From an uncultured Atribacterota bacterium (GTDB lineage: Bacteria > Atribacterota > Phoenicimicrobiia > Phoenicimicrobiales > Phoenicimicrobiaceae), in NCBI GenBank assembly GCA_964632105.1, contig CAZWFH010000003.1, forward strand, positions 1 through 34,013: 34,013 nt of DNA, written 5' to 3'. Under the pieces are notes generated by a model. It was not told the DNA's origin. It saw only the letters and a program-made list of their open reading frames with translations, and made no database searches. Below are positions 20,146 through 31,280 of this stretch, in pieces; positions within the stretch are counted from its first letter, which is position 1, and each line of letters starts with the position of its first letter. The position numbers were made by a program, and so were the translations under genes.

Positions 20146-20973
20146 ATGGAAAAAATACGTCCCAATTACCCTATAAAAGTTTTAGATAAATCCCTCTCCA
20201 TTCTCGAGACCATGCTTCGACAGGGTTCTGCTATGAGCATGACTGAAATCAGTGAAAAATTAGGACTCTATCCCAGCACCACTCACCGTATATTAGATAC
20301 TTTAAAACATTGGGGATATGTGGAGCAAGAACCCAATAATCAGAGATACCAGCTAGGTCTAAAAGTTATAGAATTAGGCATGGCTAAACTTCACCAAATG
20401 GACCTGGCAAGAGAGGCTACTCCTTATCTAAAAGAGCTAGTAAATCAGTGTAACGAAACTGTCCATTTAGGAGTTCTGGAAGAGGGAGAAGTTATGTATT
20501 TAGCCAAAGAGGAGTCTTCTCAAACAATAAGAATGATCTCTTACGTAGGGAAAAGAGCTCCTCTTCACTGTACGGCATTGGGGAAAATACTATTAGCCTA
20601 TATGTCAGAAGAAGAAAGAGAAAAAATCTTAGAAGATAGAGAACTTCCTCGCCTTACCGAGAAGACCATCACTGATAAAAGGGAATTAGAAAAAGAACTT
20701 GGTAAAGTAAGAGAACAGGGTTTTGCCTTAGATAGAGAAGAAAACGAAAAGGATGTTCGCTGTGTAGCTGCCCCCATCAGGAATCATCAAGGAAAAGTTA
20801 TAGCTGCTATTAGTATTTCAAGCCCTATTTTCAGGATAGATAAAAATGTACAAAATAATCTAAAAAAAGTTCTTATAGAGACAAGCGAAAAAATATCTAA
20901 AAGATTGGGATATAAAGAAAAATCGCAAAAAGAGGAAAAGAAGGAGGTGGAAACTAGAGAAAAATTTATTTAG
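20146..20973 (+). CDS. kdgR: IclR-family transcriptional regulator (KdgR-like pectin/hexuronate regulator)
   Basis: N-terminal wHTH (MSMTEISEKLGLYPSTTHRILDTLKHWGYV) and C-terminal IclR effector domain (GFALDREENEKDVRCVAAPI). The symbol is inferred from context only. Confidence 0.7.
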   Translation: MEKIRPNYPIKVLDKSLSILETMLRQGSAMSMTEISEKLGLYPSTTHRILDTLKHWGYVEQEPNNQRYQLGLKVIELGMAKLHQMDLAREATPYLKELVNQCNETVHLGVLEEGEVMYLAKEESSQTIRMISYVGKRAPLHCTALGKILLAYMSEEEREKILEDRELPRLTEKTITDKRELEKELGKVREQGFALDREENEKDVRCVAAPIRNHQGKVIAAISISSPIFRIDKNVQNNLKKVLIETSEKISKRLGYKEKSQKEEKKEVETREKFI

Positions 20974-25130: not shown

Positions 25131-25229
25131 GGTAGGAAGTATTCAGAAGCCAGAAGCCAGAAGCCAGAATGAGAGATAAGATAGATAGTATCTCATATAT
25201 CGAATATTAAAGAACAGATAACGAATAGA
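25131..25229 (+). repeat. 7-nt periodic array (AGAAGCC x3, then degenerate units)
   Basis: In register: GGTAGGA AGTATTC AGAAGCC AGAAGCC AGAAGCC AGAATGA GAGATAA GATAGAT AGTATCT ... It starts 8 nt after the uxaE-like stop. Confidence 0.7.
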
Positions 25230-26104: not shown

Positions 26105-26139
26105 CGTATCGCGTATCGCGTATTGCGTATTGCGCTTGG
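26105..26139 (+). repeat. 7-nt tandem array CGTATCG x2, CGTATTG x2, CGCTTGG
   Basis: Begins 3 nt after the SDR stop. The opening TTCGTATC is shared with the array at 30983. Confidence 0.8.
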
Positions 26140-26191: not shown

Positions 26192-26282
26192 CTACTGATA
26201 ACTGAAAACTGATTATCTTTATCTAAAAACTAAAAACGAAAAACTATAAACCTATTTTTTTACACTAACGACTAAATAAGGA
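26192..26282 (+). repeat. 7-nt periodic array (nnACTGA x3, then AAACnAA-type units)
   Basis: CTACTGA TAACTGA AAACTGA TTATCTT TATCTAA AAACTAA AAACGAA AAACTAT AAACCTA ... It runs into the gnd RBS. Confidence 0.65.
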
Positions 26283-26291
26283 GGAATGTAA

Positions 26292-27782
26292 ATGAAAAAA
26301 CAAAATATTGGATTAATTGGCTTGGGTCCTATGGGACAAAATTTAGTTTTAAATATAGAAAGCAAAGGTTATAAGGTAGCAGTATTTAATAGAACAAGTA
26401 GTAAGACTGAAAAATATACCGAAGAAATGGCTAAAGGAAAAAATATATTACCTACCTATTCTTTAGAGGAATTTGTAAATTCTTTAGAAACTCCTCGAAA
26501 AATAATACTACTTGTAAAGGCAGGTAAAGCTGTAGATAGCTTTATAGAAAAACTTATTCCCTTATTAGATAAAGGAGATTTAATTATTGATGCTGGAAAT
26601 TCTTTTTTCAAAGATACGATAAGACGCAATAAAGAGTTAAATGATTTAGGATTATTATTTATCGGAACAGGCATTTCTGGAGGAGAAGAAGGAGCCTTAA
26701 AAGGGCCGGCTATAATGCCTGGCGGACAGAAAGAAGCTTATGCTCTGGTAGAAGATATATTCAAAAAGATTGCGGCCAAAGCCTACGATGGTGTTCCTTG
26801 TGTATCCTATATTGGTCCAGATGGAGCTGGCCATTTTGTTAAGATGGCACATAATGGTATCGAATATGGGGATATGCAATTAATTGGAGAATGTGTTTGG
26901 GTATTTAAGAATGCTTTGAATATGAGTTCGGAAGAAATTGCAGGGATTTTAACCGGTTGGAATAGCAGCGATGATGTTCTTCGCTCTTATTTAGTAGAAA
27001 TAACCGGAGAAAGTATGAAAGAAAAAGATAAAAAAACTGGCGAGTATCTGGTTGACCGAACAGCTGATATTACCAGAATGAAAGGGACAGGGACCTGGAC
27101 AGTACAAAGCGCTTTGGAATTGTTAGTCCCTATTCCTACTATTACTGCTGCGGTTTTCTCACGAGAGATGTCTCAAGATAAAGATTTGAGACTGAAAGTA
27201 TCTAAAAGATTATCAACTTTCAAGGAAAAATATGTGGGAGAAAAAGAACGGTTTATCGAAATTGCCCATGATGCCCTGTATCTGGCTAAGATTTCTTCTT
27301 ACGCCCAGGGTATGGCTTTATTACAGGCTGCTTCCAAGGAATATAAATGGAACCTTAATTTAGGAGAAATTGTTAAGGGATGGCGAAGTGGGTGTATAAT
27401 TCGGGCTCAGTTTTTAGATGAAGTTACCAAGGCCTACGAAAAAAATCCAGAAATACCCAATCTTTTAACTGCTCCTCGATTCGCTGAAGTGGTTAAACAA
27501 TATCTTAACAAATTAGCCAACTTTATCGAGATTGCTCATTGGGTAAAAGTACCTGCTCCGGCTATGGATAATGCTTTTGATTATATTCTTCAACTGGTCA
27601 GTCCGGTAATGATTTCTGCCCAGATATCAGCCCTACAACGAGATTATTTTGGAGCCCATGGTTACTTTAAACTCAAAGGATTAGATGATCCGGAAGTAAT
27701 AACTACACCAGATGGAAAAATGAGAGAGTTTCATACTGAATGGATGCTACCCGGACGACCGGAAGAGGAATGGACTGAGTAA
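26292..27782 (+). CDS. gnd: 6-phosphogluconate dehydrogenase, decarboxylating
   Basis: IGLIGLGPMGQNLVLNIESKGY Rossmann motif, GISGGEEGALKGPAIMPGG, HFVKMAHNGIEYGDMQLI and QRDYFGAHGY. Confidence 0.9.
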   Translation: MKKQNIGLIGLGPMGQNLVLNIESKGYKVAVFNRTSSKTEKYTEEMAKGKNILPTYSLEEFVNSLETPRKIILLVKAGKAVDSFIEKLIPLLDKGDLIIDAGNSFFKDTIRRNKELNDLGLLFIGTGISGGEEGALKGPAIMPGGQKEAYALVEDIFKKIAAKAYDGVPCVSYIGPDGAGHFVKMAHNGIEYGDMQLIGECVWVFKNALNMSSEEIAGILTGWNSSDDVLRSYLVEITGESMKEKDKKTGEYLVDRTADITRMKGTGTWTVQSALELLVPIPTITAAVFSREMSQDKDLRLKVSKRLSTFKEKYVGEKERFIEIAHDALYLAKISSYAQGMALLQAASKEYKWNLNLGEIVKGWRSGCIIRAQFLDEVTKAYEKNPEIPNLLTAPRFAEVVKQYLNKLANFIEIAHWVKVPAPAMDNAFDYILQLVSPVMISAQISALQRDYFGAHGYFKLKGLDDPEVITTPDGKMREFHTEWMLPGRPEEEWTE

Positions 27783-27862
27783 GTGATGAGTGATGAGTAA
27801 TAAGTGACCAGTAATAAGCAGTAAAGAAACGACCAAGAATAAGAAGCAGGGAGTGAGTAGCA
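27783..27862 (+). repeat. Left heptamer array and inverted-repeat arm (GTGATGA GTGATGA GTAATAA GTGACCA GTAATAA ...)
   Basis: Eleven 7-nt units lie between the gnd stop and the ATG at 27863. Positions 27783-27800 are the exact reverse complement of 28259-28276. Confidence 0.85.
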
Positions 27863-28222
27863 ATGAGCAAAGAAATAAGGAATCATAAAGATTTGGAAGT
27901 TTGGAAAAAAAGTATAGATTTGGTCAGTAATATTTATAAAATTACTGAGTCTTTTCCAAACAAAGAACTTTATGGTTTAACAAATCAAATAAGAAGAGCA
28001 GCGGTTTCTGTTCCTTCAAATATTGCTGAAGGTGCTGCAAGAAACTCTAAAAAAGAATTTATTCAATTTTTATACATAGCCTTAGGATCATTATCTGAAC
28101 TCGAGACGCAAATTATTATTGCAAGCAGGTTAGAATATTTAAATAATTTAGATACTTTATCAGAGGACCTTAAATTTGTACAAAAATTGATAAATGGATT
28201 AATATATTATTTAAAAAAGTAA
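27863..28222 (+). CDS. Four-helix-bundle protein (23S rRNA intervening-sequence protein family)
   Basis: 119 aa. LEVWKKS...FPNKELYGLTNQIRRAAVSVPSNIAEGAAR.SKKEFIQFLYIALGSLSELETQ is the hallmark pattern of this family. Confidence 0.85.
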   Translation: MSKEIRNHKDLEVWKKSIDLVSNIYKITESFPNKELYGLTNQIRRAAVSVPSNIAEGAARNSKKEFIQFLYIALGSLSELETQIIIASRLEYLNNLDTLSEDLKFVQKLINGLIYYLKK

Positions 28223-28237
28223 TTTTAAATACAATTT

Positions 28238-28286
28238 TTCCTTATTTCTTGTTATTTGTTACTCATCACTCATCACTCATTACTAT
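28238..28286 (+). repeat. Right heptamer array and inverted-repeat arm (TTCCTTA TTTCTTG TTATTTG TTACTCA TCACTCA TCACTCA TTACTAT)
   Basis: Reverse complement of the left array (18 nt perfect, about 14/21 beyond). It ends just before the RBS AGAGGGAGG. Confidence 0.85.
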
Positions 28287-28307
28287 ATTTAAAGAGGGAG
28301 GATTAAT

Positions 28308-29585
28308 GTGCTATCCATTGAAAATCTCCAGGGAGAATTAACTAAAGAACAGTTAAAAGAAATCGTAAAAGAAAGTCTGAAAAATATTTCTTCGGTAAAA
28401 AAAGTTCTTTTAATTCATCCTGATTATACCCGGACAGACTTTACCGATAAATTAATTCCCCTTATATATCAAGAGCTAAAAAATAAAGGAATGACTCAAA
28501 TTGATTCTTTAAACGCCGGTGGTACTCACCGAGCAATGACGGAGAAGGGAATTCGGGTTAAGTTAGGACTTTCCAACCAGATTAATTTTACTCATTTTTA
28601 TAATCATGAATATAACGACCCTCAACAACTGGTGACTGTAGGTGAGATTTCTGCTTCTTTTGTAGAAAAAATGACTAAAGGCGAGTTGTCACAATCTATT
28701 CCGGTAGTGGTAAACAAGCTGGTTACAGAAGATTATGATTTGATTATTGCCTTAAGTGGAACCTTGCCCCATGAAGCCGCTGGTTATGCGGGAGGTTTAA
28801 AGGTGTTTTTACCGGGTATCTCCGGACCAGAGGTGATAGATTTATTCCACTGGGCAGCGGTGCTTGTAGGAATCCCCCAGATTATTGGCACTGTCAATAA
28901 TTCTGCACGAGAAGTTATAAATAAAGGTTCTTCTTATGTTTTTAATAAAATAAAAGTGCCAGTCCTCTTATTTAATATGATCTTTGAAGAAAAAGAACAT
29001 CAGGTAATACCAAAAGGTCTATACATAGGTGTGGGGTTCGATGGTTTTATCGAGGCCTATAAACAAGCAGCAAAAGCGAGCTCTCAACTCCATGTAGTTT
29101 ATATAGATAAACCTCTTGAGTGTGCTGTCCAGGTTATTGATAAAAGTTATGATGAGATTTGGACTGCCGGGAAAGGTTCTTATAAACTGCAGAGTCCTGG
29201 AGTTATGGCTCCAGGTGGGGAGATTATTATTTATGCACCTCATATTAATTGTTTTCATTCTCGCATAGAGATGGACTTTGCCTTAAGACAGATAGGATAT
29301 CATTGCAAAGATTATGTAAAAAAATATTTGAAATTAAATCCCGATTTTAGTAAAAATATAGCTGCTCATGTTATAAATGTAAGAGGGGCGGGAAGTTTTG
29401 ATGTTAATTCCTGGAAAGAAGAATTTGACTTTAAAGTTACTTTGACTACCGGAATTCCTCAAGAAGTTTGTAAATCAGTCGGATTGGGTTATCGTAATCC
29501 TGATTCAATTCGTAAAGAAGATTTTATTGGTCCAGAAAAACTTTGGATACAAAATGGAGGAAAATATCTTTACAAAATAAAATAA
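28308..29585 (+). CDS. LarA-superfamily (nickel-pincer-nucleotide dependent) 2-hydroxyacid racemase/epimerase homologue; D-mannonate/D-gluconate 2-epimerase candidate
   Basis: GTG start 7 nt after GGAGG. DYTRTD and GGTHR blocks are present. The H155-x9-K165-x15-H181 spacing is identical to LarA His174/Lys184/His200, and H100 is the candidate His108 equivalent. Confidence 0.65.
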   Translation: MLSIENLQGELTKEQLKEIVKESLKNISSVKKVLLIHPDYTRTDFTDKLIPLIYQELKNKGMTQIDSLNAGGTHRAMTEKGIRVKLGLSNQINFTHFYNHEYNDPQQLVTVGEISASFVEKMTKGELSQSIPVVVNKLVTEDYDLIIALSGTLPHEAAGYAGGLKVFLPGISGPEVIDLFHWAAVLVGIPQIIGTVNNSAREVINKGSSYVFNKIKVPVLLFNMIFEEKEHQVIPKGLYIGVGFDGFIEAYKQAAKASSQLHVVYIDKPLECAVQVIDKSYDEIWTAGKGSYKLQSPGVMAPGGEIIIYAPHINCFHSRIEMDFALRQIGYHCKDYVKKYLKLNPDFSKNIAAHVINVRGAGSFDVNSWKEEFDFKVTLTTGIPQEVCKSVGLGYRNPDSIRKEDFIGPEKLWIQNGGKYLYKIK

Positions 29586-30983: not shown

Positions 30984-31039
30984 TCGTATCTCGTATCTCG
31001 TGAATCGTATTTCGTAAAAAAGAAGTCCAGGTGCCAGAA
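30984..31039 (+). repeat. 7-nt array TCGTATC x2, TCGTGAA, TCGTATT, TCGTAAA, AAAGAAG, TCCAGGT, GCCAGAA
   Basis: Begins 4 nt after the PFK stop. The last unit, GCCAGAA, is the unit repeated at 25145-25165 in a different register. Confidence 0.8.
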
Positions 31040-31130: not shown

Positions 31131-31256
31131 ATAAAAAACAATACATTATCTGAAAAAGTTTTGAATTTTGAATTATGGTTTTTAATTTTTCGCTGTAAGT
31201 TTTTAGTTTGATAAATAATTTATTCTATACGCTAAATGCTACCCGCTATATGCTAT
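31131..31256 (+). repeat. 7-nt periodic array (TTTTGAA x2, TTATGGT, TTTTAAT, TTTTCGC ... ACGCTAA ATGCTAC CCGCTAT ATGCTAT)
   Basis: Eighteen units stay in a constant register up to the RBS of the HAD gene. Confidence 0.7.
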
Positions 31257-31280
31257 AATTTAAAGAAAAGAGGAGAAAGA

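Follow-up and report, generated by a model that had tools for sequence, protein, structure and literature searches.

The window, as the whole stretch of DNA analysed is called here (34,013 nt of contig CAZWFH010000003.1, positions 1 to 34,013 of the forward strand, assembly GCA_964632105.1), comes from an uncultured Atribacterota bacterium and contains, in the spacer between gnd and a larA-like gene, a 119-aa four-helix-bundle (4HB) gene enclosed by inverted arrays of tandem heptamers. This element is probably one copy of a multicopy, widespread cassette of the intervening sequence (IVS) type that lodges in operons and is of the same kind as the open reading frame (ORF)-bearing IVSs of rRNA. 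An earlier note, made from the sequence of the window, had offered a mobile IVS-like unit outside rRNA as one of two alternatives; it is now favoured because copies occur in other contexts and because empty, decayed and ORF-less sites were found at the same junction in relatives. Versions of the cassette with 79-97% protein identity are present in three gene contexts in Atribacterota, namely between gnd and larA, between rtcB and serS, and between pfk and a HAD gene, and the arms and ORF are thus not unique to the window.

The host genes on either side are gnd, encoding an NADP-dependent 6-phosphogluconate dehydrogenase (26292-27782; PF00393, PF03446; NF006765 603 bits), and a LarA-like gene (Lar_N) with a GTG start at 28308 (28308-29585; PF09861 E 1.1e-24) that is closest to the model of a nickel-dependent putative hexonate epimerase (NF052594), with 201.6 bits against a cutoff of 500. 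Orthologues of the LarA-like protein assign the window to Atribacterota. Both host genes are on the + strand, as are all parts of the cassette and all other genes of the window; coordinates throughout are positions in the window unless a locus of another contig (L-numbers) is named. The perfect 18-bp inverted repeat described previously is real: 28259-28276 (TTACTCATCACTCATCAC) is the exact reverse complement of 27783-27800 (GTGATGAGTGATGAGTAA). The left arm does lie beside the gnd stop codon, but base 27783 directly follows the TAA (27780-27782) rather than beginning 1 nt later, and the right arm is upstream of the ribosome-binding site (RBS) of the larA-like gene as proposed, but in its extended form it ends 9 nt before the RBS and not about 20. 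An inverted-repeat search extends the arm pair to 27782-27829 and 28237-28284 (48 nt, 79% complementarity), with a shorter extension of 37 nt at 86% complementarity. The left arm is made of about six tandem heptamers (AGTGATG, AGTGATG, AGTAATA, AGTGACC, AGTAATA, AGCAGTA) and the right arm of their reverse-complement counterparts, ending in ACTCATC, ACTCATC, ACTCATT and ACT; Tandem Repeats Finder places period-7 arrays at 27782-27807 and 28261-28284. Matches to the 14-mer GTGATGAGTGATGA with at most two mismatches are confined within the 34-kb window to the two arms (4 versus 0.13 expected), and at least 4 matches were reached in 0 of 100 shuffles.

Between the arms, a Shine-Dalgarno (SD)-like sequence AGGGAGTGAG (27848-27857), recognised from the sequence and the cassette alignment, precedes the 4HB gene (27863-28222), which is assigned to PF05635/TIGR02436 and called Avd-like on the basis of hidden Markov models (HMMs), fold and dN/dS. 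AGGGAGTGAG is conserved in all cassette copies and is kept even in a relic that has no ORF (L040). The right arm is followed by a spacer, TATATTTAAAGAGGGAGGATTAA (28285-28307), that contains the RBS of the downstream gene, GAGGGAGG (28294-28301), as delimited by the alignment and by the spacers of empty sites. When RNA of positions 27770-28300 is folded, the stem formed by the two arms closes the structure, as the earlier note had anticipated; the minimum free energy is -126.7 kcal/mol versus -93.9 +/- 5.2 for shuffled sequences (z = -6.4), the energy of the arm duplex, which also supports the delimitation of the right arm, is -48.0 kcal/mol versus -16.8 +/- 4.0 for shuffles, and the 18 core pairs have a pairing probability of 0.66 in a context of 901 nt. 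Arms, ORF and gene calls together bear out the stem-plus-ORF layout between protein-coding genes. No promoter specific to the cassette was found (27 promoter-like sites versus a shuffle mean of 21.8 +/- 4.3, none of them specific to cassette spacers) and no cassette-specific terminator either, terminator-like sites being below the shuffle mean and the sole strong hairpin being a REP-like element elsewhere; no Rfam family, rRNA included, was matched anywhere in the window. The arms hold TGA or TAA stops in all three frames, but a general function of the heptamers as all-frame stop insulators was rejected on the basis of arrays sampled across the family, a stop trinucleotide being present in 37 of 72 versus 31.4 +/- 3.6 expected.

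The closest relatives of the window protein are encoded not at the orthologous junction but between rtcB and serS, in clusters with 97%, 97%, 96%, 96%, 92% and 91% amino acid identity, and this arrangement is found on dozens of independent contigs from several sources; a relative with 79% identity is encoded between the PFK and HAD genes of the same type of operon as that of the window. Alignment of the window cassette with a copy from between rtcB and serS shows homology that begins in the left array, takes in RBS, ORF and right array, and reaches the downstream SD, where DNA homology stops, the flanking host genes being unrelated. The left arm of the window is thus homologous to the arm of the rtcB-serS copies, and TATTTAAAGAGGGAGGA, just before the downstream start codon, is common to both, which places the boundary of the cassette in or beside the downstream SD; the left end is always at or near the upstream stop codon. 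The nucleotide identity of the ORFs does not track their context: the window ORF is 96.6% identical to that of an rtcB-context copy (dS 0.14), but 85% and 83% identical to those of gnd-context loci L014 and L157 (dS 0.64 for both), while two rtcB-context ORFs (L054 and L064) are 88.5% identical to each other (dS 0.56). It follows that cassettes located at separate sites either exchange sequence with one another or have undergone re-insertion. The number of arm units varies between close relatives.

Several observations accompany the rtcB-serS context. In locus L184 (986-4263; GCA_048634305.1, JAIWAO010000031.1) the gene order is the hybrid gnd-(4HB)-serS: the left flank, the left arm and most of the ORF are 97-100% identical per 50-nt window to the gnd-larA type of L154, the 3′ flank is of the rtcB-serS type, and the switch is in the 3′ part of the ORF or in the right arm, as would result either from recombination between two cassette copies or from an assembly chimera at a repeat. 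In L146 (2300-2500) more than 10 AGTAATR units make up an expanded left arm, upstream of which the sequence is unrelated to rtcB; this indicates either expansion of the array together with a breakpoint at the arm's outer edge, or mis-assembly. In one Atribacterota lineage (L055-L064, L180) the RtcB protein encoded upstream of the cassette contains an intein (997 or 968 aa, with the domain order RtcB-Intein_splicing-RtcB), whereas other lineages of Atribacterota encode a 485-aa RtcB preceded by archease.

Comparison of the junction between gnd and larA in relatives revealed intact, truncated, ORF-less, arm-only, replaced and empty states, which show the site to be polymorphic with a full decay series. 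The cassette is intact in L014, where larA is 69% and the 4HB protein 83% identical to those of the window, and also in L153-156 (95%), L157-162 (80%), L171-173 (85%) and L174-176 (78%). In L006 the ORF breaks off after codon 66 and is fused there to the right arm, in L040 both arms and the 4HB RBS are present with no ORF, and in L007, L010 and L042 the left arm stands alone. Nine loci (L001, L002, L004, L005, L011, L016, L031, L036, L037) have other heptamer arrays (TAGTATA, TAGCGTA, TCGTATC, CAGAAGN) and GC-rich GTAG…CTAC hairpins in the spacer. A close relative of unassigned phylum whose larA product is 83% identical at the amino acid level (L003) has a clean spacer of 20 nt, and spacers of 20-60 nt are found in L012, L013 and L015, from non-Atribacterota or unassigned metagenome-assembled genomes (MAGs). 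In the contig set JAUVOA01 (MAG CSMAG_624), an intact rtcB-context copy (L183) coexists with a mere relic between gnd and larA (L007).

The earlier note had raised, as its other alternative, a processing site that separates gnd-proximal from larA-distal mRNA. The junctions bear on a related possibility, that the element is a regulatory device domesticated by its host, in which a stem-loop serves as a processing or stability site that sets the levels of gnd-proximal versus larA-distal mRNA and the ORF is a passenger. Such a device would account for the exact fit of the element between a stop codon and an RBS, for the strength of the predicted stem, and for the presence of the cassette or its relics at the same junction in distant Atribacterota (L014, L157-162, L171-176). 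It would not account for the close relatives that have the same operon without the cassette (L001-L005, including the 20-nt spacer of L003), for the same cassette at the rtcB-serS and pfk-HAD junctions, for family members in operons as unrelated as those of cas genes, RNR (ribonucleotide reductase) genes and tRNA clusters, or for purifying selection on the ORF and not on a stem alone. The occurrence of one cassette in operons that have nothing to do with each other, and its absence from close relatives that share the operon of the window, make a role specific to this host unlikely, and we consider the domesticated device improbable as a whole.

The 119-aa product was correctly recognised in the earlier note as a member of the IVS-protein family: it matches PF05635 with an E value of 8.6e-41 (138.9 bits, cutoff 33.8), and scores 137 bits with TIGR02436 (cutoff 24) and 153.7 bits with NF008911 (cutoff 137). 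It contains the hallmark motifs QIRRAAVSVPSNIAEG and GSLSE. The motifs G-x2-R-x3-S-x3-N-x2-E and GS-x-SE, described for the PF05635 family (PMC3936711), correspond to GLTNQIRRAAVSVPSNIAEG in helix 2, with the glycine supplied by YGLT, and to GSLSE in helix 3. Among 37 relatives Q42, R44, S49, P51, S52, N53, A55, E56, S76 and E79 are invariant, and G75 is conserved in at least 90%. For all pairs of ORFs dN/dS is 0.07-0.27, from which it follows that the 4HB protein is functional and under purifying selection. An AlphaFold2 model (pLDDT 93.1) has four helices (residues 12-28, 39-58, 63-89 and 96-118). The sequence matches the protein of known structure XCC0516 (2GSC, E 8e-30) and also 2RLD, and five chains are deposited in each of these entries; XCC0516 has been called a homopentamer (PMC4990558). 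By Foldseek the model superimposes on 2GSC with a TM score of 0.90 and a root-mean-square deviation of 0.8 Å, and on Avd (4DWL/8UBE) with a TM score of 0.78. We regard the 4HB protein as probably an Avd-like, predicted pentameric nucleic-acid-binding barrel. None of the defence-protein families of PADLOC was matched at E <= 0.01, and the only match among PHROGs was a weak one to Avd (phrog_3206). The PF05635 family as a whole comprises 24,958 clusters at 50% identity (E <= 1e-3), of which 10,301 have E <= 1e-10.

The family was sampled by a protein-based scan of metagenome contigs that yielded 80 loci (48-71% identity, 30-68% GC), with 67 genes whose flanks could be analysed; an inverted repeat of the flanks was counted at a Smith-Waterman score of at least 25, and neighbouring genes in the same loci served as controls. 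Flanking inverted repeats enclose 44 of the 67 PF05635 genes (66%) and 3 of 110 neighbours (2.7%), an enrichment of about 25-fold (Fisher p 5.5e-21). The arms are nearly always built of tandem heptamers, most often of the form AGTNNNN. Period-7 arrays are present in 72 of 134 flanks, compared with 2, 2, 10 and 4 flanks for periods 5, 6, 8 and 9, and fill 22.3% of the 60-nt windows within 160 nt of the ORF versus 1.3% elsewhere in the same loci. With the window and the finished genomes described below included, the unit varies by lineage (among others AGTGATG, AGTGAAC, AGTGGTG, AGTGGTC, AGGGGTC, AGGGGCC, AGTAGGC, AGTACCC, AGTAGGG, GACRGAG, GGTTYAA); AGT occurs within it in 37 of the 72 arrays (about 8 expected, p 2e-17) and ACT in just 3. 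The well-conserved portion of an arm has a median length of 3.9 units (interquartile range 3.4-4.9). The feature that is conserved across phyla is the heptamer make-up of the arms, a generality that the earlier note missed, and not the particular 18-mer of the window.

Finished genomes provide further examples of the bracket. The PF05635 gene located between RNR genes of Nostoc edaphicum is flanked by eight AGTAGGG and five CCCTACT units; the units are GGTTYAA in Riemerella anatipestifer and GACRGAG in Azospirillum lipoferum, and in Picosynechococcus a short inverted repeat of GGAGATA-type units (score 29) is found between cmr2 and cmr3. Nostoc sp. PCC 7120 has a right array alone, accompanying an identical protein on two plasmids. 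This protein, WP_010994075.1, is encoded on plasmids gamma (L163) and alpha (L164) beside different transposase genes, with the same downstream array of CYTCTGC heptamers and unrelated upstream sequence. The earlier note had treated a location outside rRNA as a surprise, but it is the norm: co-directional ORFs lie on both sides in 43 of the 67 members (43 of the 51 cases in which the orientation of both neighbours could be determined), and 0 of 20 loci scanned with Rfam are in rRNA. In one locus (L087, region 699-1350) a PF05635 gene (867-1241) is situated between co-directional tRNA genes (699-772 and 1278-1350), a stable-RNA operon context that is intermediate between the situations of an rRNA IVS and of an mRNA spacer.

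The explanation that we favour for these observations begins with a cassette composed of a left AGTRAYR array, its own RBS, a PF05635 gene and a right complementary array that ends beside the RBS of the next host gene. Lodged in the spacer of two co-directional genes, it would be transcribed by read-through from the host operon, and in the transcript the arms would pair to form a long stem with the ORF in its loop, as in ORF-bearing IVSs of 23S rRNA; we infer read-through and stem formation from the anatomy of the cassette, which supports both well. By analogy with rRNA IVSs, RNase III would cut the stem, a step that we find plausible though slightly short of probable. Such cleavage would set the 4HB message free without damage to the cistrons on either side, so that an insertion would cost the host almost nothing. 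At the DNA level, copies in separate spacers would exchange sequence or re-insert, and decay reduces cassettes to a truncated ORF, a stem with no ORF or a single arm; the 4HB protein is maintained by selection.

Several points weigh against this explanation. Read-through and RNase III cleavage in an Atribacterota host are argued by analogy only, and the protein's ligand and the manner in which copies move are also elements of the account that we infer. The cassette contains no transposase domain detectable with Pfam or NCBIfam, the 4HB gene being its sole ORF, and no known mechanism of mobility was found; target-site duplication is not evident by eye at the outer ends in the window, L045 or L177. 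The three contexts are drawn from different metagenomes and MAGs, and no assembly was found with both contexts intact, CSMAG_624 being the sole two-site assembly and one of its sites a relic. Repeats of about 500 bp can cause mis-assemblies of metagenomes, as may apply to L184 and L146, and the cassette between gnd and larA could be ancestral, with losses and gene conversion, instead of newly inserted. Mismatches in the arms comprise 47 G-U and 62 A-C oppositions (p 0.18), with no excess of G-U. This is the pattern that neutral decay or homogenisation at the DNA level predicts, and selection on a sense-strand RNA helix was rejected on these counts. Furthermore, the arrays are direct rather than inverted in 8 of the 67 loci, and also between cas6 and cas4 on plasmid pPg_01 of Pseudanabaena galeata (L167, 1300-1980; 15 GCTAAAA units upstream and 10 GCCAAAA units downstream); arrays in this orientation are unable to pair into a stem.

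Together, the lack of a G-U excess and the direct arrays indicate that selection may act on something other than the RNA helix, and leave room for another explanation, in which the heptamer arrays are putative binding sites, in RNA, single-stranded DNA or double-stranded DNA, for the predicted pentameric barrel of the 4HB protein whose gene lies between the arrays. The conserved feature would then be the array and not the stem; the complex of protein and array would control the cassette (by autoregulation or protection) or mediate its propagation, and the complementarity of the arms would be a by-product of arrays that face each other. In keeping with such sites, the period of 7 is conserved in different phyla although the heptamer itself varies from lineage to lineage, an AGT core is frequent, and the conserved arm portion is close to four units long. 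Both solved homologues were deposited with five chains per entry, Avd, the structural relative, forms a positively charged pentameric barrel and has a defined RNA element as its ligand (bioRxiv 10.1101/2023.10.23.563531), and the 4HB protein is under strong purifying selection. A study of Nostoc has, moreover, postulated a protein that binds heptamer repeats, its identity unspecified (bioRxiv 10.1101/2022.06.06.494920). However, the number of units ranges from 2 to 20 and is not fixed at five, recognition of differing heptamers would demand that the specificity of a very small, highly conserved protein co-evolve with them, and many arrays in Atribacterota spacers (TAGTATA, TCGTATC, CAGAAGC) have no adjoining 4HB gene. 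We judge binding sites to be a rather unlikely explanation, and retain the IVS-type cassette as the preferred one.

The IVS-type cassette invites comparison with several known systems. In the 23S rRNA IVSs of Leptospira and Coxiella burnetii (S23p), as in the window, a PF05635 ORF is in the loop of a long inverted-repeat stem, the distribution is sporadic and the ORF has decayed in some lineages. In the IVS of Coxiella, tandem GACAGAT heptamers (two or three, depending on the strain) precede the S23p ORF, and the first of these repeats marks the site at which RNase III cuts to excise the element (PMC4990558). The window cassette differs in that it occupies the spacer of an mRNA, flanked by gnd and a larA-like gene, instead of helix 25 or 45 of 23S rRNA, and in its ORF, which has a good SD and dN/dS of about 0.1, whereas the ORF of Coxiella is decaying and probably untranslated; RNase III excision, demonstrated for the rRNA elements, is a prediction for the window cassette. 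With Avd of diversity-generating retroelements (DGRs) the window protein shares the four-helix bundle and weak HMM similarity (PF22296 E 1.9e-4; NF033474 25.6 bits; phrog_3206), but its invariant R-x3-S-x3-N-x2-E-G is typical of the PF05635 branch. Identification as the Avd of a DGR was rejected, as the score with NF033474 is far below the equivalog cutoff of 80 and a Pfam scan of those window ORFs that are 100 aa or longer revealed no reverse transcriptase; template and variable repeats were likewise not found in the window.

Units of 7 nt in tandem within transcribed spacers, often near start or stop codons, are common to the window arms, the short tandemly repeated repetitive sequences (STRRs) of cyanobacteria, the 70-75 convergent (inverted) pairs of GGGAATC arrays of Xanthomonas (PMC4692102) and the TAACTGA arrays that precede start codons in Beggiatoaceae (PMC4679880), the last being the complement orientation of an AGTNNNN-type unit. 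Arrays of the window type differ in bracketing a PF05635 gene specifically and with fixed polarity, and the studies of the STRR, GGGAATC and TAACTGA repeats draw no such link. In the literature, we found no statement that PF05635 genes generally sit between inverted heptamer arrays, only isolated hints in Coxiella and Xanthomonas; PF05635 genes in cas loci have been interpreted as functional associates (PMC3936711). The inverted ends, ORF-less hairpins (L040), single-arm relics and several intergenic sites of the cassette also resemble pairs of MITEs (miniature transposable elements with inverted repeats) and their autonomous partners, and the repetitive extragenic palindromes (REPs) with their REP-associated tyrosine transposases (RAYTs), but the cassette has no transposase or Y1-type domain and no target-site duplication that is evident by eye, and its arms consist of variable tandem units instead of a fixed terminal inverted repeat.

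The host operon, in the order uxaC-uxaE-SDR-gnd-(4HB)-larA-like-PFK-HAD, belongs to a pectin/hexuronate locus with GH28, GH4 and ABC transporter genes, and its other spacers contain tandem heptamer arrays of their own (25144-25169, 26105-26134, 26194-26251, 30984-31016, 31159-31189 and 31221-31257) with the motifs CAGAAGC, CGTATCG, ACTGAAA/CTAAAAA, TCGTATC and TTTTGAA. The arrays after the SDR and PFK genes begin a few bases past the stop codon and the array after uxaE begins about 20 nt past it, and these motifs are found again in the corresponding spacers of orthologous operons of other Atribacterota, where no 4HB gene adjoins them. GC-rich perfect hairpins are also present in the spacers of this AT-rich genome (25230-25257, 26143-26162, 26170-26191 and 31040-31131); several are of the GTAG…CTAC type (for example, GTAGGGGCGTATTGCAATACGCCCCTAC), have a REP-like appearance and occur in orthologous spacers as well. 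Elsewhere in the window, an IclR family regulator is split over the overlapping ORFs 1547-1900 (HTH_IclR and part of IclR_C) and 1882-2217 (the rest of IclR_C), probably a frameshifted pseudogene or a sequencing error, and an intact IclR gene is at 20146-20973.

With heptamer arrays so plentiful in Atribacterota spacers, found after other stop codons of the window (25144, 26105 and 30984) and throughout orthologous spacers, it might be supposed that arrays generated by slippage happen to flank an ordinary small gene. Such a coincidence is very improbable: a single motif makes up both arms, inverted in one relative to the other, and its 14-mer has no further occurrence in the window; the 4HB gene has these arms beside it in three contexts; and the enrichment of flanking inverted repeats over neighbouring genes holds across many phyla and a wide range of GC content.

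A location outside rRNA is ordinary for the PF05635 family, and the apparent novelty lies in the general bracketing of PF05635 genes by heptamers and in the evidence for exchange between loci. The bracket ties together two puzzles that are decades old, the function of the IVS/S23 four-helix-bundle proteins and the reason why the spacers of some bacteria are filled with tandem heptamers. PF05635 genes in cas, restriction-modification and catabolic operons may be lodgers and not components of these systems, a caution for annotation by guilt by association. We propose tentatively, as a possibility well short of probable, that PF05635 genes with inverted AGTNNNN arrays are an unrecognised class of selfish cassettes that spans phyla, that rRNA IVSs are its special case, that the Avd-like pentamer binds the arrays, and that the orphan arrays in the spacers of cyanobacteria, Xanthomonas, Beggiatoaceae and Atribacterota are relics or satellites of such cassettes. 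If true, a family of roughly 25,000 clusters at 50% identity would acquire a function, and bacterial heptamer repeats, which have lacked an explanation ever since their first description, would acquire an origin.

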